A stretch of 64,000 bases of DNA from Escherichia coli (GCF_041248615.1 NZ_CP158426.1), one strand, 5' to 3'. Shown: positions 2,234-61,861, numbered from the stretch's first letter. Program-made: numbers and translations. Notes: generated by a model not told the origin, from the letters alone.

Positions 2234-5941
<3,708 letters not shown>

Positions 5942-7128: not shown

Positions 7129-7847
7129 CGCAGATGACGACCGCCATCAAGAGGGAAACTGCGTCCGGTGACAAAGCAGCTGGTAAGTAAGTAATCGACC
7201 AGGTCGATTACTTCTTTCTCGCCAGGCGCGGTTTTCATCAGTGATTTATTCAGCGCCTGTTGTCGATATTCGGCATCATCATGCTCATTAAACAGGATCA
7301 GCGATGGCGCAATAGAATTCACTTTCACTTCCGGTGCCAACTTGCGGGCAAACGAGCGGGTCATATTATCCAGTGCCGCTTTGCTTGCAGCATAGGCAAT
7401 ATGTTTGTCGCTACCGCGCTCCACCACATAATCGGTAAAGTGAATAATATCGCTGGCGGCGTGTCCGTGCCCACGCAGTAATCTTTCCAGGGCATGGTTG
7501 AGTAGATATGGGGTATTAACGTGGATCTGCATCATGCAAGCCAGTACGTCGGTCAGTGGTGTACTTGGTTTTTCTGCCATCCACGCGCTGGCGTTATGCA
7601 AAATAGCACGCAGGCCATGGGTGCTTTTTAGTACTTCATCGGCAAACGCCATCACACCGTCGTTGGTCGAAAAATCAGCCTGAATACACTGCGCACCTGC
7701 GTTAATCAGTCCATCAATGGCTGGATAGTGCGTCCGATAGCTGATAATCACCGGTTGCTTTTGATTAATGAAATGCCATGCGAGGGCGAGGCCGATGCGA
7801 CGACCACCGCCAGTAATTAATATTGGCAAGGGCTGGGCTTTACCCAT
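7125..7847 (-). CDS. folM: Dihydromonapterin reductase (SDR family), 240 aa
   Basis: Track ORF 240 aa with SDR Rossmann motif (ILITGGGRRIG); 4-nt convergent overlap with ydgC. Confidence 0.9.
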   Translation of the reverse strand: MGKAQPLPILITGGGRRIGLALAWHFINQKQPVIISYRTHYPAIDGLINAGAQCIQADFSTNDGVMAFADEVLKSTHGLRAILHNASAWMAEKPSTPLTDVLACMMQIHVNTPYLLNHALERLLRGHGHAASDIIHFTDYVVERGSDKHIAYAASKAALDNMTRSFARKLAPEVKVNSIAPSLILFNEHDDAEYRQQALNKSLMKTAPGEKEVIDLVDYLLTSCFVTGRSFPLDGGRHLR

Positions 7848-13851: not shown

Positions 13852-13855
13852 CCCT

Positions 13856-13884
13856 GACGGCCTCTGCGGAGGCCGTCACTCTTT
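13856..13884. terminator. Hairpin shared by convergent pntB and tqsA (probable bidirectional terminator)
   Basis: GACGGCCTC/GAGGCCGTC perfect 9-bp stem with TGCG loop, followed by T-rich tract on plus strand; overlaps tqsA stop. Confidence 0.6.
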
Positions 13885-16008: not shown

Positions 16009-16050
16009 ACGCTGCCCGCGCTGTCGGGCAGCGTTTGAACATTATTTTTG
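16009..16050. terminator. Hairpin plus T-run between convergent mdtI and ydgD
   Basis: ACGCTGCCCG/CGGGCAGCGT 10-bp stem followed by TTGAACATTATTTTT. Confidence 0.6.
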
Positions 16051-22299: not shown

Positions 22300-23508
22300 A
22301 GTCCGCGAAATTACCGACGCAATTACGCAGGCAATCAATAAACCGGGGAGTAGCTGATACTCCCCGGTCATTTCACATATCATCAACGTCGACATAATCG
22401 GCGCGTGCGTGGTTGCCGCCAACAGTGTCGCCATCCCGGTCAATCCGAGTAAAAGCGTAATTTCTTCGCCATCAGGGAACCATAATCCCAGGCTACGACC
22501 ATACAACATGCCAATGGCAAGACCGATAAATAGCGTCGGTGTAAAGACACCACCGGGCGCGCCAGAACCACTACTCGCCAGCACGGCAAACAGTTTACAG
22601 AGGAAGATCCCGGCAATGATCATTAACAGTGGCGGGGCGGTTAAAAAGGATTGTACGGTGCTATAGCCGTTGCCCCACACTGCAGGTGTGAACAGGGAAA
22701 GCAGCCCCACGATCAACCCGCCCAGTGCCAGTTGCCAGGGCGGCGCAAGTTTGAGACTCACAAATCCACGATGACAGGCGTTCATTAACGTTAACAACAG
22801 TGGTCCGCACAGACCTGCCAGCACACCTGTACTGATAATCAGCGCATAGTCACGAGCCTGAACCGTCACTGAGAGTTGTACGCTGTAGAGTAACGCGTCG
22901 CTATGATTAATCAGATTGCTAACCAGCAACGCCACGACGGCGGAAATAATCACCGGGCCGAGAGAGGCCAACATCATAGTGCCAAACAGCACTTCGGCTA
23001 TAAATAAACTGCCAGCAAGCGGGGCGCGATAGGCCGCAGCCATTCCCGCCGCAGCTCCACAGGCGATCCATAATTTCCACTCCTGGCGTGGCGTAAAACG
23101 TTGGGCAAAACAGGAGGCGGCAAGGGCAGCTAAAAGAATCATCGCACCTTCGCGACCAATTGCACTGCCGCTGGTTACTACCAGCAGAGAGGCAAGCGAT
23201 TTAACCAGGCTTGCTGCGTAATCGAACTGCCCATCGGTTTGCAACGCTTCCATGTAATCGGTCGGCGCATGAGGGCGTTGCTGGGTAAATTTCTGCCAGC
23301 CCATCAGCAACAAACCCGCCGCCAGTCCGCCGAGCGCCGGAGTTAGCAGCCGTCGCCACGGGGAAAGATTTGTCGCTGCATTGACCAGACTGCCCGAGTC
23401 ATTATTGAGGAACAACCACTCCAGTAGCAGCATCGTATGACGAAACCCGGCAACGGCAAAGGCCGCGAGAATACCGACGACTGTTGCGATAAGCAGACGG
23501 CGGAACAT
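22252..23508 (-). CDS. clcB: ClC-family voltage-gated chloride channel, 418 aa
   Basis: Track ORF 438 aa; start placed at [12 protein letters not shown] (complement ATG 23506-23508); GSAIGREG and GGVFTP ClC motifs present. Confidence 0.88.
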
Positions 23509-38902: not shown

Positions 38903-38929
38903 AAAAGCAATGCCGCCATCGGCGGCATT
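38901..38929 (-). terminator. Rho-independent terminator of ydfZ
   Basis: Stem AATGCCGCC/GGCGGCATT with ATC loop; on minus strand followed by U6 (complement of AAAAAA 38901-38906). Confidence 0.7.
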
Positions 38930-43031: not shown

Positions 43032-43061
43032 GGCTGGCCTGGAGAAATCGCCAGGCCAGCC
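43032..43061 (+). terminator. Strong hairpin 12 nt after dcp stop (terminator-like, no U-tract)
   Basis: Perfect 11-bp stem GGCTGGCCTGG/CCAGGCCAGCC with 8-nt loop. Confidence 0.4.
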
Positions 43062-44031: not shown

Positions 44032-44943
44032 ATGATCAAGAAGACAACGGAAATTGATGCCATCTTGTTAAATCTCAATAAGGCTATCGATGCCCACTAC
44101 CAGTGGCTGGTAAGTATGTTTCACAGCGTGGTCGCGAGAGATGCCAGTAAGCCAGAAATAACGGATAACCATTCTTATGGACTGTGCCAGTTTGGTCGGT
44201 GGATTGATCATCTGGGGCCACTCGATAACGATGAATTACCTTATGTTCGGCTAATGGATTCTGCCCATCAACATATGCATAACTGTGGTCGGGAATTAAT
44301 GTTGGCTATTGTTGAAAATCACTGGCAGGACGCGCATTTCGACGCCTTTCAGGAAGGGTTGCTTTCTTTTACTGCGGCATTAACCGATTACAAAATTTAT
44401 TTGCTGACGATCCGTAGCAATATGGATGTTTTGACGGGATTGCCGGGTCGTCGGGTTCTTGATGAATCCTTTGATCATCAGTTACGCAACGCTGAGCCTC
44501 TGAATCTTTATTTAATGTTGTTGGATATTGACCGATTTAAATTGGTTAATGATACCTACGGGCATTTAATCGGCGATGTAGTATTACGCACCCTGGCAAC
44601 TTACTTAGCCAGTTGGACGCGCGATTACGAAACGGTTTATCGCTACGGTGGCGAAGAATTTATCATTATTGTCAAAGCGGCTAATGATGAAGAAGCATGT
44701 CGTGCAGGTATCAGAATTTGCCAGTTAGTCGATAACCATGCCATCACACATTCTGAAGGGCATATCAACATTACCGTGACAGCAGGTGTCAGTCGCGCAT
44801 TTCCTGAAGAGCCTCTGGATGTGGTCATTGGAAGAGCAGACCGGGCAATGTATGAGGGTAAGCAAACCGGAAGAAATCGCTGCATGTTTATTGACGAACA
44901 AAATGTGATTAACCGAGTTTCAGCTCCGTTTAACATTCATTGA
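44032..44943 (+). CDS. dgcZ: Zinc-sensing diguanylate cyclase DgcZ (GGDEF), 296 aa
   Basis: Track ORF 305 aa; start placed at MIKKTTEID (ATG 44032) with AAGGAG RBS; RYGGEEF active-site motif. Confidence 0.9.
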   Translation: MIKKTTEIDAILLNLNKAIDAHYQWLVSMFHSVVARDASKPEITDNHSYGLCQFGRWIDHLGPLDNDELPYVRLMDSAHQHMHNCGRELMLAIVENHWQDAHFDAFQEGLLSFTAALTDYKIYLLTIRSNMDVLTGLPGRRVLDESFDHQLRNAEPLNLYLMLLDIDRFKLVNDTYGHLIGDVVLRTLATYLASWTRDYETVYRYGGEEFIIIVKAANDEEACRAGIRICQLVDNHAITHSEGHINITVTAGVSRAFPEEPLDVVIGRADRAMYEGKQTGRNRCMFIDEQNVINRVSAPFNIH

Positions 44944-44967
44944 GAAAACTGATGCTACTGTGTCAAC

Positions 44968-45065
44968 GATCCGTTATCAGTGCAGGAAAATGCCTGTTAG
45001 CGTAAAAGCAAAACACAAATCTATCCATGCAAGCATTCACCGCCGGTTTACTGGCGGTTTTTTTT
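44968..45065 (+). ncRNA. mgrR: Candidate PhoP-dependent small RNA MgrR (~98 nt)
   Basis: Intrinsic terminator (CCGCCGG/CTGGCGG stem + T8) ends at 45065; PhoP-box-like CGTTTA-N5-CATTGA at 44927-44943 and -10-like TACTGT place a TSS near 44968, giving ~98 nt; adjacent to mgtS as I recall for K-12. Confidence 0.55.
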
Positions 45066-45140
45066 CGCCGTCATAAAAATCAGGCCCCTTGTACACAACT
45101 GTAACAAGGGGCCGGTTAGGTGAGGGATTATCTCCGTTCA

Positions 45141-45236
45141 TTAGTCATCCCATTTGTGGCTGAAATACGCGGCCAGAAAACCAGAAAATAAAATTATTCC
45201 CAGTACGGCCATAAAAACATTCATATTACCCAGCAT
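45141..45236 (-). CDS. mgtS: Small membrane protein MgtS (YneM), 31 aa
   Basis: Manual translation MLGNMNVFMAVLGIILFSGFLAAYFSHKWDD with GGAGGG RBS upstream; matches recalled MgtS sequence. Confidence 0.7.
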   Translation of the reverse strand: MLGNMNVFMAVLGIILFSGFLAAYFSHKWDD

Positions 45237-47649: not shown

Positions 47650-47693
47650 ACGCACAGAATGTGATGTCAGCACTCTGTGCGTCTGCTTTTATC
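47650..47693 (+). terminator. Rho-independent terminator of eamA; island-side regulator stop codon lies inside its T-tract
   Basis: Stem CGCACAGA/TCTGTGCG with 15-nt loop followed by TCTGCTTTTATC. Confidence 0.6.
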
Positions 47694-48387
47694 GCGGGAA
47701 AAAGTACTTTACCTGGAACTCGAAAATATTGCTGTAAAGTAACGAATAATCCAGCGGAATAGAGTTACTGTCCACAGCCTGGGTCTGAATTTTAAGTATG
47801 GGATCCCGTGGGCTGATCCGTAAAATACTGGCGATTTCTGGGGTAGGAAAAGTAGGGGAGAAAGTTTCAAAGGTGCCAATGATTTTGATCCCGCATTCGT
47901 TCTCAATATACGAAAATTTGGATTTTTGCATATGTGCTACGGTTAAATCAGGAAAACGTGCCACTGACATCCACGTTTCTTCTAATTGTGCTGCATTATC
48001 CTCAATGAATCGCAGTCTCTTTATGTAATAAACCTGCTCACCAGTCACTAAATTCAGCTCAGTCGCAATAGGGGGAGAAGCATCCTGCACTTCAAATTTC
48101 ATAATCTGACTTCCTGCCTCCTTGCCGCTTTTATGCGCAATTTCACTGAAGCTGTTCATGTGATCAATGTGTGCAACAAAATTCTTTTTTTGAATATATG
48201 TTCCTGAACCATGCTTTCTATGAATAATTCCTTCGCCTTCCAGCAAGGATAATGCCTTACGCAGGGTATTACGCGAAACATTATAACGAACAGCGAGTTC
48301 AGCTTCTGACGGCAACAAATCACCAACATGCCATGAATAGCCATTGATCTCGGATTTAAGTAAGCGGGCAATCTTTTGAAAAATCAC
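47689..48387 (-). CDS. GntR/HutC-family transcriptional regulator with UTRA effector domain, 232 aa (bgcR-like), GTG start
   Basis: Track ORF 232 aa; N-terminal GntR HTH (LPSEAELAVRYNVSRNTLRKALSLLEGEGII) ; divergent from the PTS operon. Confidence 0.85.
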   Translation of the reverse strand: MIFQKIARLLKSEINGYSWHVGDLLPSEAELAVRYNVSRNTLRKALSLLEGEGIIHRKHGSGTYIQKKNFVAHIDHMNSFSEIAHKSGKEAGSQIMKFEVQDASPPIATELNLVTGEQVYYIKRLRFIEDNAAQLEETWMSVARFPDLTVAHMQKSKFSYIENECGIKIIGTFETFSPTFPTPEIASILRISPRDPILKIQTQAVDSNSIPLDYSLLYSNIFEFQVKYFFPR

Positions 48388-48585: not shown

Positions 48586-48897
48586 ATGAAAAAGATATTG
48601 TTAGTTTGCGCTGCGGGCATGTCAACCAGTATGCTGGTTAAACGTATGATTGATCATGCTAACGCTATTTCACTTGAAGTTAATATTTCCGCATTGGCGA
48701 TTGCAGAGGCTAAAGGGAAAATTAAAAATAACGAAGTTGACGTTGTTTTACTTGGCCCGCAAGTTCGCTTTCAGAAACCAGAGATTGAAGCTGTTGCACA
48801 GGGGAAAATGCCTGTAGCTGTTATCGAGATGAAAGACTATGGCACCATGAACGGACAGGCAGTTCTTGAATTTGCGATGAAACTACTGCAAGAGTAA
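48586..48897 (+). CDS. PTS lactose/cellobiose-family EIIB component, 103 aa (bgcE-like)
   Basis: Track ORF 103 aa MKKILLVCAAGMSTSMLV... with phosphorylatable Cys in LLVCAAGMSTS motif. Confidence 0.9.
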   Translation: MKKILLVCAAGMSTSMLVKRMIDHANAISLEVNISALAIAEAKGKIKNNEVDVVLLGPQVRFQKPEIEAVAQGKMPVAVIEMKDYGTMNGQAVLEFAMKLLQE

Positions 48898-49010
48898 GAA
48901 TCTAATATTATTAAACTATTACCTGAACTAACTTTTCACACATCATAAAATGGATATGGCATACATGCTTTATTGGGATGTATAAATATCCAGAACAACA
49001 GGTATAAAAA

Positions 49011-50333
49011 ATGGGATTAATGACCTCATTCGAACGTGGAATGGAACGTTTTCTTGTTCCAGTTGCTATCAAGTTAAACTCACAAAAACATGTTGCAGCG
49101 GTGAGAGATGGATTCGTTTTTACGTTTCCAATTATCATGGCAAGCTCATTAATTATATTAATTAACTTTGCCATATTATCGCCCGACGGCTTTATTGCCG
49201 GGCTGCTGCATCTGAACCGCGTTTTCCCCAACCTTGAAAAAGCACAAGCTATTTTTACTCCGGTAATGAATGGCTCTGTAAATATCATGTCAATTATGAT
49301 TGCTTTCCTGGTCGCCAGAAATATGGCGATTAGCTATGAGCAAGATGATCTTTTATGCGGATTAACGGCAATAGGAGCATTTTTTATTGTTTATACGCCA
49401 TATCAGATGATAGATGGGCAAGCATTCCTGACGACCAAATATCTCGGCGCACAGGGGTTGTTTGTTGCTGTTATCGTTGCATTAATCACCAGTGAAATAT
49501 TTTGTCGCTTAGCTCGAAACCCAAAAATCACCATAACGATGCCGGCAGCTGTACCTCCTGCGGTATCGCGTTCATTTAAAGTTTTATTGCCAATATTTTT
49601 TGTCATGGTGTTCTTTTCCGCACTTAATTATTGCCTGACACTGATATCCCCGGCAGGATTAAACGATCTCATTTACACATTAATCCAGACGCCGCTCAAA
49701 CATATGGGAACGAATATCTTTGCGGTAATTATCCTGGGGGCTGTGGGTAATTTCCTGTGGGTGCTGGGGATCCACGGACCTAATACCACCTCGGCAATTC
49801 GAGAAACTGTTTTTTCTGAGGCTAATCTGGAGAATCTCTCCTGGGCCGCTCAACACGGCACTACCTGGGGCGCGCCATATCCGATTACCTGGACTTCTAT
49901 TAATGATGCATTCGCCAACTGCGGCGGTTCAGGTATGACGTTGGGGTTATTGTTGGCTATTTTTATCGCGTCTAAGCGTGCGGAATACCGTGATCTGGCA
50001 AAAATGTCGTTTATCCCCGGTATTTTCAATATCAATGAACCGATAATGTTCGGCCTTCCTATTGTACTTAACCCCATCATGATGGTGCCGTTTATTCTGG
50101 TTCCCATTGTTAACTGTGCCATTGGTTACTTCTTTGTTTCGATGGAAATTATTCCACCGGTTGCTTATGCCGTGCCCTGGACTACGCCCGGACCTTTAAT
50201 TGCTTTCCTCGGAACCGGGGGAAACTGGTTGGCGTTACTGGTGGGTTTTTTATGTTTAGGTGTGGCGACAATGATCTATTTACCTTTTGTTATTGCCGCC
50301 AACAAGGTCAATAACATGACAACTAACGGATAA
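49011..50333 (+). CDS. PTS lactose/cellobiose-family EIIC permease, 440 aa (bgcF-like)
   Basis: Track ORF 440 aa polytopic membrane protein with EIIC-type layout. Confidence 0.88.
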   Translation: MGLMTSFERGMERFLVPVAIKLNSQKHVAAVRDGFVFTFPIIMASSLIILINFAILSPDGFIAGLLHLNRVFPNLEKAQAIFTPVMNGSVNIMSIMIAFLVARNMAISYEQDDLLCGLTAIGAFFIVYTPYQMIDGQAFLTTKYLGAQGLFVAVIVALITSEIFCRLARNPKITITMPAAVPPAVSRSFKVLLPIFFVMVFFSALNYCLTLISPAGLNDLIYTLIQTPLKHMGTNIFAVIILGAVGNFLWVLGIHGPNTTSAIRETVFSEANLENLSWAAQHGTTWGAPYPITWTSINDAFANCGGSGMTLGLLLAIFIASKRAEYRDLAKMSFIPGIFNINEPIMFGLPIVLNPIMMVPFILVPIVNCAIGYFFVSMEIIPPVAYAVPWTTPGPLIAFLGTGGNWLALLVGFLCLGVATMIYLPFVIAANKVNNMTTNG

Positions 50334-50354: not shown

Positions 50355-50672
50355 ATGTTGATGTTTGCAGATGAAGAACTTGTTATGGAGTTACTGATCA
50401 ACGCGGGACAGGCACGTTCTGATGCGATGGAAGCCATACGTTGTGCCGGGCAAAAAGACTGGCAGGGCGCAACTCAGCTAATGGCCAGTTCGGAATTAGC
50501 CTGTCTTCAGGCACATAAGATTCAGACCGCGTTAATTAGTCAGGATGAAGGTTGTGGCAAAATAGAAGTTAATTTAATTCTGGTTCATGCACAGGATCAT
50601 TTGATGAATGCAATATTATGCCAGGATTTAGCCAGGGAAATTATTTCATTAAGAAAAGAGCTCCATGCCTGA
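50355..50672 (+). CDS. PTS lactose/cellobiose-family EIIA component, 105 aa (bgcI-like)
   Basis: Track ORF 105 aa, all-helical EIIA-lac type with conserved His in VHAQDHLM; AGGAAGGAG RBS. Confidence 0.9.
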   Translation: MLMFADEELVMELLINAGQARSDAMEAIRCAGQKDWQGATQLMASSELACLQAHKIQTALISQDEGCGKIEVNLILVHAQDHLMNAILCQDLAREIISLRKELHA

Positions 50673-50676
50673 TTTT

Positions 50677-50702
50677 TTCCTCCAGTGCGATAGCTGGAGG
50701 AA
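50677..50702 (+). other. Intra-operon stem-loop between EIIA and porin genes
   Basis: Perfect 9-bp stem TTCCTCCAG/CTGGAGGAA, 8-nt loop, preceded by T6 and followed by AUUAUUACACUCUU, ending 26 nt before porin ATG. Confidence 0.45.
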
Positions 50703-50724
50703 ATTATTACACTCTTAAGGATAA

Positions 50725-54845
<4,121 letters not shown>

Positions 54846-54874
54846 TGAGACTTCAGGAAGATATTACGGAGATA

Positions 54875-54898
54875 TCAGGCTCTGTGATCAGAGCCTGA
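54875..54898 (-). terminator. Hairpin downstream of marB (terminator candidate for marRAB)
   Basis: 10-bp stem TCAGGCTCTG/CAGAGCCTGA with 4-nt loop, 7 nt beyond marB stop. Confidence 0.5.
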
Positions 54899-61798: not shown

Positions 61799-61861
61799 CG
61801 CTACATATTCAGCTCTGATATACTCGCAGGTCTTTTCAGACCTGCGGTCCAGGAGTAGAAA

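Follow-up and report, generated by a model that had tools for sequence, protein, structure and literature searches.

Stem-loops between co-transcribed genes are a familiar means of giving the segments of one mRNA different stabilities, as exemplified by the REP hairpins between malE and malF of Escherichia coli, the puf hairpins of Rhodobacter capsulatus and the processing of papB-papA. RNA elements are also found in sugar uptake systems related to the one treated here, where the sRNA ChiX, the chiP porin and an intercistronic decoy in chbBC of the chitobiose PTS operon are functionally connected. The general principle of segmental mRNA stability in operons has been reviewed (PMC2777011), and the same work describes a stem-loop followed by an A/U-rich stretch as a classical RNase E substrate and secondary structure as an impediment to 3' exonucleases. 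Furthermore, Hfq and RNase E act on the A/U-rich region of the ompA leader (PMC2777011), and Hfq binds next to the RBS of manX, in a PTS operon (PMC5861419).

The stem-loop considered here is located between the EIIA and porin genes of the bgc operon, in a stretch of 64,000 nucleotides of E. coli DNA (the window). The bgc beta-glucoside operon of E. coli is the subject of the account by Neelakanta, Sankar and Schnetz (2009, AEM 75:2284), which is not known to describe the hairpin; the window carries the same locus, with the GntR regulator and the EIIB-EIIC-EIIA-porin-glucosidase order. The bgc beta-glucoside operon has been described with BgcR as its positive regulator (PMC3585215), and corresponds to c1955-c1960 of CFT073 (PMC2831201). 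Literature searches employing bgc names, CFT073 locus tags and PTS/porin intercistronic hairpins, with the original bgc paper outside their scope, returned no description of the element. Likewise, Rfam 15 gave no match at the hairpin, even at E <= 10 around the operon, and a search of the whole window at gathering score returned STnc560 alone. The hairpin thus appears to be previously undescribed, with no Rfam family and no entry in the literature searched. It represents an unexceptional type of functional mRNA structure, one of the familiar class of intercistronic stem-loops, and most likely marks a decay or processing boundary rather than a true terminator. Since the kind of element is well known, the gain is incremental.

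The bgc operon and its intercistronic stem-loop

Genes were annotated from an ORF list and from RefSeq record NZ_LT599825 (E. coli NRZ14408), which is 100% identical to the window, with the bgcA coordinates converted from this record to those of the window. Gene order and annotation place an accessory island between eamA (ydeD) and marB, and this island has the composition of a bgc locus, i.e. a divergent GntR regulator and then EIIB, EIIC, EIIA, porin and phospho-beta-glucosidase. The relevant features are as follows, with the supporting sources in brackets:

47689-48387, minus strand: bgcR, divergent GntR-family regulator (ORF list; RefSeq 'GntR family transcriptional regulator')
48586-48897, plus strand: PTS EIIB, first gene of the operon (ORF list, synteny, RefSeq)
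49011-50333, plus strand: PTS EIIC (ORF list, synteny, RefSeq)
50355-50672, plus strand: PTS EIIA, lactose/cellobiose family (the RefSeq start is 50361)
50670-50672, plus strand: EIIA stop codon TGA
50676-50703, plus strand: conserved RNA stem-loop, 11 bp in its extended form (folds, pair probabilities, covariation, covariance model)
50676-50686, plus strand: 5' arm, UUUCCUCCAGU
50677-50685, pairing with 50694-50702: perfect 9-bp core of the stem-loop
50687-50692, plus strand: loop GCGAUA, 6 nt
50693-50703, plus strand: 3' arm, GCUGGAGGAAA
50704-50716, plus strand: A/U-rich single-stranded spacer UUAUUACACUCUU, from the hairpin to the Shine-Dalgarno sequence (alignment, constraint, tail scores)
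50717-50721, plus strand: porin Shine-Dalgarno sequence AAGGA, 6 nt 5' of the ATG (sequence; purine-rich block aligned in all orthologues)
50728-52401, plus strand: bgcH, carbohydrate porin, LamB/BglH-like, 557 aa (ORF list, synteny, RefSeq)
52426-53157, plus strand: bgcA 5' part, 6-phospho-beta-glucosidase (RefSeq; the intact gene is seen in locus L001)
53100-54328, minus strand: IS3-family transposase with programmed frameshift, interrupting bgcA (RefSeq)
54420-54848: bgcA 3' part, beyond the IS3-family element
54875-54898: perfect 10-bp hairpin TCAGGCTCTG / CAGAGCCTGA, between the convergent bgcA and marB

The IS3-family element splits the 6-phospho-beta-glucosidase gene, and the bgc operon of this strain is consequently non-functional for catabolism; the first-pass annotation had correctly assigned EIIA, porin and glucosidase to a single operon that is disrupted here. 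The hairpin at 54875-54898 is followed by no U-tract on either strand and is likely the end of the bgc operon, so that the operon end, too, would be marked by a tail-less hairpin. In the 113-nt spacer between EIIB and EIIC (48898-49010) an imperfect hairpin is present at approximately 48951-48992 (GGAUAUG...AUAUCC); hairpins fold in this spacer in the orthologues also, yet no obvious conservation of sequence or structure was found by eye. A full-length match to STnc560, an Hfq-binding sRNA family of Rfam, lies about 5.5 kb upstream of the conserved hairpin (44934-45147, plus strand; 281.9 bits, E = 1.8e-64), and we take this match to be the MgrR region, beside mgtS/mgtT.

The stem-loop sits in the 55-nt spacer that runs from the EIIA stop (50672) to the porin ATG (50728), between two co-oriented, closely spaced genes that annotation and synteny assign to one operon. 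The distances to this stop and this ATG had been given correctly to within one base. Positions 50677-50702 read TTCCTCCAG/TGCGATAG/CTGGAGGAA, an inverted repeat of 9 bp without mismatch, its arms 8 nt apart, and the same repeat was recovered independently in a window-wide scan for perfect hairpins. The original description of a perfect 9-bp stem with an 8-nt loop is accordingly sound, whereas the attribute GC-rich was generous, as G-C accounts for five of the nine core pairs. Folding free energy, one of the checks suggested in the first-pass annotation, ranged from -16.2 kcal/mol for the 26-nt element to -20.1 kcal/mol for 45 nt. In the 26-nt fold (ViennaRNA) a closing U.G pair forms and leaves a 6-nt loop, the z-score is -5.96, and none of 200 shuffles was equally stable. 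In context the stem can be lengthened by three U-A pairs to 11 bp (z = -7.1 for the 45-nt fold), and within 326 nt of surrounding sequence each pair of the hairpin has a probability of at least 0.97.

Perfect hairpins of at least 9 bp are considerably enriched in the 64-kb window, where 17 hits, falling at about 11 sites, compare with 1.8 +/- 1.2 for dinucleotide-shuffled sequence, and this roughly tenfold excess indicates that such stems are non-random as a class. Other examples, all with loops of 3-8 nt, are found at 7189-7213, 13855-13878, 16009-16034, 22343-22367, 38909-38929, 43034-43059, 50976-51000 (within the porin coding sequence), 53051-53072 and 61825-61846.

Conservation and variation of the helix

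The orthologue survey, performed with the porin protein as query and one genome per species, yielded 32 loci. The alignment comprises 19 sequences, the window included, which represent the orthologous operons with an alignable porin-upstream region: Escherichia (E. coli and E. albertii), Salmonella diarizonae, Citrobacter, four Kluyvera, two Raoultella, Klebsiella sp., Cedecea, several 'Enterobacter sp.' isolates, Buttiauxella and Ewingella. In all 19 loci the same place is occupied by a hairpin of 8-11 bp, and RNAalifold returned this helix only. Standard pairs occupy 95.2% of the stem cells, and both-sided changes, e.g. C-G to U-A or A-U to G-C, were observed in seven of the ten pairs. The observed covariation score was reached by none of 500 column shuffles, and when the partner columns were slid as a control, pairing amounted to only 22-56%. 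Conservation of the stem in other copies of the island, a further check that had been suggested, was in other words strongly positive and accompanied by compensatory changes across the 19 loci.

Among the 115 most diverged species pairs the stem retains an identity of 0.59, compared with 0.25 for the loop and 0.35 for the four-fold sites of the porin gene; loop and four-fold sites are saturated at that divergence. The two C-G pairs at the base never vary, and the arms differ in composition throughout, the 5' arm being rich in pyrimidines (CCUYC) and the 3' arm in purines (GRAGG). Conservation of the stem with compensatory changes argues for a selected RNA structure, and the excess of G.U over A.C cells in the stem alignment (8 vs 2) favours RNA of the sense strand, not antisense RNA or DNA. 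Judged from the alignment, the stem-loop is kept by natural selection as a sense-strand RNA helix.

A covariance model built from the 19 sequences and searched over 297 kb matched these 19 sites alone, one of them in the window; nothing was detected upstream of the paralogous porins, and no second copy in the window. The paralogous porin loci (L019-L025, L028-L031 and L034; 49-60% identity) have other upstream genes and no similar hairpin. In the Erwinia loci L019, L021 and L025 (approximately 2890-3000), where the porin is 58-59% identical, a different structured region precedes the porin gene with no EIIC or EIIA nearby, and this region may be a different regulatory leader.

The repeat could also be read as a DNA-level palindrome, i.e. 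an operator for BgcR or another dimeric protein or a recombination site, as a REP-like repeat, or as a chance inverted repeat. It is indeed perfect at the DNA level, and either strand could form it. However, the arms change by compensatory substitution and the spacer varies in length, which is the opposite of operator behaviour, and G.U pairs are tolerated on the sense strand only, in the above ratio of 8 to 2. Among 5426 complete E. coli genomes, 2503 carry the island and its hairpin, each as a single copy at this locus, which speaks against a REP-like repeat, as does the lack of a second copy in 297 kb. Chance is excluded by the cross-species conservation and the shuffle z-scores. Taken as a group, these readings are scarcely credible. 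A REP/BIME element in particular was rejected, as BLAST searches with 141-nt and 38-nt queries gave a median of one place per genome, always this locus, and the covariance model found no second copy.

The position of the hairpin was measured in 17 loci, the imperfect stems of Citrobacter and Cedecea neteri being left out. The stem lies 23-30 nt from the porin ATG. Its separation from the preceding stop codon is 3-13 nt in loci with EIIA upstream, and 17-76 nt in those of Kluyvera, Cedecea, Enterobacter sp. and Buttiauxella, in which EIIC takes that place. In these latter genera the EIIA gene is absent between EIIC and porin (L006, L007, L011-L016, L027 and L033, approximately 2790-2940), and it was not found within 3 kb on either side; the sequence 5' of the hairpin can still be aligned to that of Ewingella at the EIIA stop and just after it. 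On these alignments, the simplest reading would be that EIIA was lost and the hairpin retained. The operon can also exist without the hairpin: Erwinia psidii has the EIIA-porin arrangement and no hairpin, and in Raoultella sp. BIGb0138 (L010, 2791-2931), which retains EIIA remnants, a deletion took the hairpin and left the A/U-rich box and the Shine-Dalgarno sequence in place. The Kluyvera loci contain an additional small hairpin, UUCGUCAGGGAAAGACGAA-like, which immediately follows the EIIC stop, upstream of the porin hairpin (L006, 2868-2900, and the equivalents in L007 and L014).

Within E. coli, 2064 of 2505 records match a 38-nt core at 100% identity, and a further 339 at 90-95%. Two of these 339, SCAID URN1 (urine) and the probiotic A0 34/86, have lost one C from the 5' arm, and one of the two also has a loop change; the fold is weakened but kept (-13 to -15 kcal/mol). 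In E. coli TUM14664 (L039, 1591-2375) the porin Shine-Dalgarno sequence is the exact insertion point of an IS1 element, placed after AAGG and thus between hairpin and ATG. In other strains the porin or the glucosidase gene is interrupted by IS1, IS2 or IS3, suggesting frequent inactivation of the distal operon genes.

The A/U-rich box and the readings it allows

An A/U-rich spacer is located downstream of the stem in all 19 loci. This box reads AAAUAAUAAUUAUA in Cedecea, Enterobacter sp., Ewingella and Buttiauxella, (C)AUUAUAAUUA in Kluyvera, AUAUAAUAAUUA in Klebsiella and UAUUAUAAAAAUA in Raoultella, and the spacer of the window, UUAUUACACUCUU, is the counterpart of AAAUAAUAAUUAUA. Between Cedecea and Ewingella/Buttiauxella the box is 0.88-0.94 identical, with four-fold sites at 0.40-0.45, and it is conserved as sequence outside the Escherichia, Salmonella and Citrobacter group. 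The spacer at 50704-50716 is a candidate RNase E, Hfq or S1 site, and at the same time it forms a weak 'U-tail'.

This tail, together with a stable G+C-containing stem-loop of 9-11 bp (dG -16 to -20 kcal/mol), is the basis for regarding the hairpin as a leaky Rho-independent terminator or attenuator, which would lower transcription of porin and glucosidase relative to the PTS genes. The interrupted U-rich stretch noted in the first-pass annotation is real: the tail of the window is TTATTACACTCTT, with 4 T in the first 8. A consensus terminator scan, for which at least 5 U in the 8 nt directly 3' of the stem were required, gave no call for the window allele, Cedecea neteri or Klebsiella sp. Two tail alleles, TTATTACA and TTATTATA, occur in E. 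coli; the latter belongs to the major allele, in which C to T at 50709 raises the count to 5 T in 8, and this allele was called terminator-like, as was the hairpin of Kluyvera georgiana (5 of 8; tail CAUUAUAAUU). The calls for UUAUUAUACU after the stem of the major E. coli allele and for CAUUAUAAUU in K. georgiana thus favour termination, as do UAUUUUAG after the imperfect stem of Citrobacter (by eye) and a borderline nT of 2.63 for the window allele.

However, the window allele with its 4 U in 8 was not called, and the U content of most orthologue tails is 2-4 in 8. Most of these tails start A-rich (AAAUAAU or AUAUAAU); in Cedecea, Enterobacter, Ewingella and Buttiauxella they begin with AAAUAAU or AAUAAU, and in these four genera and Klebsiella an A-run start is combined with 2-3 U in 8. 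A d'Aubenton-Carafa-type score was negative in 17 of 17 loci (-3 to -57; window -10), a result that is indicative only, as modern energies were used in the formula. It is an A/U-rich sequence that selection conserves 3' of the stem, not a U-tract. As most orthologues have an A-rich tail, termination cannot be the conserved function, and strong termination would presumably be harmful given the essential phospho-beta-glucosidase downstream. Termination in Escherichia is conceivable, at most in leaky form, and would not be what preserved the helix across genera. As an explanation of the element, a leaky terminator is unlikely. Of the two mechanisms that had been put forward at the outset, processing or stability fits the conserved anatomy as a predicted role; the partial terminator is marginal, confined to Escherichia and not conserved.

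A BglG/LicT-type arrangement of RAT and terminator with antitermination was rejected, as the only regulator of the island is of the GntR family and there is neither a canonical terminator nor an Rfam match.

The constraint on the box at the sequence level has also raised the question of an internal promoter, in which the A/T box would serve as the -10 element (TATAAT) for porin and glucosidase and the hairpin would merely close the upstream unit. TATAAT-like hexamers are found in several genera: TATAAT itself is present in four Kluyvera species, Klebsiella sp. BIGb0407 and an uncultured Cedecea, 16-22 nt upstream of the ATG, and TATACT/TATATT occurs in Cedecea-type loci. The major E. coli allele has TATTAT/TATACT, whereas the window allele has TATTAC or TACACT at this place. 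Moreover, no two-hexamer sigma-70 match was obtained at the site in the window and four further loci, the -35 position would fall inside the hairpin, whose sequence varies freely, a TGn extended -10 is lacking, the 5' UTR would be only about 10-15 nt long, and the covarying stem would be left unexplained. An internal promoter is consequently very improbable.

Alternatively, hairpin and A/U box may together constitute a functional porin 5' leader of the ompA type, setting or regulating porin translation and stability, with no dependence on the PTS genes, through an S1/standby site or through Hfq and an sRNA. The order of elements is that of such a leader, i.e. a hairpin and then an A/U-rich segment directly 5' of the Shine-Dalgarno sequence, and the ompA leader (PMC2777011) and the manX RBS (PMC5861419) provide precedents. 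Further points in its favour are the constant distance between hairpin and ATG (23-30 nt, against 3-76 nt to the upstream stop), the sequence-specific constraint on the A/U box, and a row of three ARN triplets (AAUAAUAAU) in the boxes of Cedecea, Enterobacter, Ewingella and Buttiauxella. Against this, the ARN pattern is not kept in Kluyvera, Raoultella and Escherichia. For ChiX and MicA (from MG1655) and for MgrR/STnc560 (from the window), both full-length and 25-nt windowed duplex energies with the porin leader were no better than with shuffled targets. In silico deletion of the hairpin, furthermore, left the predicted accessibility of the RBS unaltered (0.49 against 0.48, p = 0.52, 17 loci). 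Overall, a leader function of the ompA type is unlikely. A related proposal, that hairpin and box form an undescribed cis-regulatory motif of bgc-type operons whose reader would be a trans-acting factor, either Hfq together with an sRNA or some other RNA-binding protein, is rather improbable. If true, such a factor would gate porin and glucosidase independently of the PTS transporter, as an internal-operon counterpart of ChiX/chiP or MicA/ompA.

Four more specific candidates were tried and discarded. A role of the hairpin as a simple RBS insulator is not supported, the predicted RBS accessibility being unchanged after in silico deletion. GGAGG in the 3' arm cannot act as Shine-Dalgarno sequence of an N-terminally extended porin, as there is no in-frame start, upstream stops are close, and the motif is too far from the ATG. 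CsrA-type sites were dismissed since, by eye, GGA is conserved in the alignment neither in the arm nor in the Shine-Dalgarno sequence, and an RNase III site since 9-11 bp is too short.

A candidate mRNA boundary and its known counterparts

The explanation that we prefer, with slightly less than even confidence, is that the hairpin acts as a boundary of mRNA decay or processing between the PTS and the porin-glucosidase segments, a proposal that follows from the anatomy of the element. It would be a cis-acting stem-loop in the sense-strand polycistronic bgc mRNA, bgcE-F-I-H-A (EIIB, EIIC, EIIA, porin and phospho-beta-glucosidase), with a helix of 9-11 bp at a set distance of 23-30 nt from the porin start, the A/U-rich leader and the Shine-Dalgarno sequence coming directly after it. 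Cleavage of the RNase E type within the neighbouring A/U-rich tract would cut the PTS part off from the porin-glucosidase part. The hairpin, then a 3'-terminal barrier, would shield the EIIB-EIIC-EIIA segment from PNPase and RNase II, and the porin-glucosidase segment would be exposed to independent decay and translation control. In this manner the level of the inner-membrane transporter could be uncoupled from those of the outer-membrane porin and the glucosidase. The interrupted U-run of Escherichia may add some leaky termination, which would not be part of the conserved function. An intercistronic stem-loop in which structure is selected over sequence, with an adjacent single-stranded A/U-rich segment that is a predicted RNase E-type substrate, is the constellation expected for a stability or processing hairpin.

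Several observations count against a boundary of this kind. From the constant distance between hairpin and ATG, a link to the initiation of porin translation may be suspected, for which a pure 3' barrier has no need, and the A/U box is under sequence-specific constraint, with TATAAT in several genera. The module might in truth serve a specific reader of the box, such as Hfq, S1, an sRNA or RNA polymerase. The absence of the hairpin from the loci of Erwinia psidii and Raoultella sp. BIGb0138 also counts against it, and the terminator-like calls for the major E. coli allele and K. georgiana leave room for some partial termination there.

The locus provides a clean, covariation-supported structured RNA inside an accessory sugar-utilisation operon, and the hairpin could join RNA-motif catalogues. 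Roughly half of E. coli genomes carry the bgc operon, many extraintestinal pathogenic lineages among them. Should the hairpin determine the ratio of PTS to porin and glucosidase, it would be part of the balancing of inner- and outer-membrane uptake components. Natural variants constitute ready-made tests, namely the B2 allele with its weakened stem, the C/T polymorphism of the tail across the terminator threshold, and the IS1 insertion at the porin Shine-Dalgarno sequence.

Compared with Rho-independent terminators and attenuators, the element shares a G+C-containing stem of 9-11 bp, a loop of 4-6 nt and, in E. coli, an interrupted U-run; it differs in having no conserved U-tract, in the A-rich tails of most orthologues and in the failure of the window allele in the consensus scan. 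With the ompA 5' UTR and manX it has in common an outer-membrane or PTS mRNA in which a hairpin and then an A/U-rich segment immediately precede the Shine-Dalgarno sequence. Unlike the ompA 5' UTR, however, the bgc module is internal to a polycistronic mRNA, and it has no sRNA partner among ChiX, MicA and MgrR. The ChiX/chiP/chbBC system likewise combines a homologous PTS family and an RNA element between two genes with RNA control of a sugar-specific porin, whereas ChiX of MG1655 shows no complementarity to the bgc region above that of shuffled controls. As in malE-malF, puf and papBA, a stable hairpin lies between co-transcribed genes with an A/U-rich single strand beside it, and unequal abundance of the two parts would be expected. 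The bgc hairpin is single-copy, resembles no dispersed family in sequence and is not a REP element. Finally, malE-malF, puf and papBA need no fixed distance to the downstream start, whereas the bgc hairpin keeps one.
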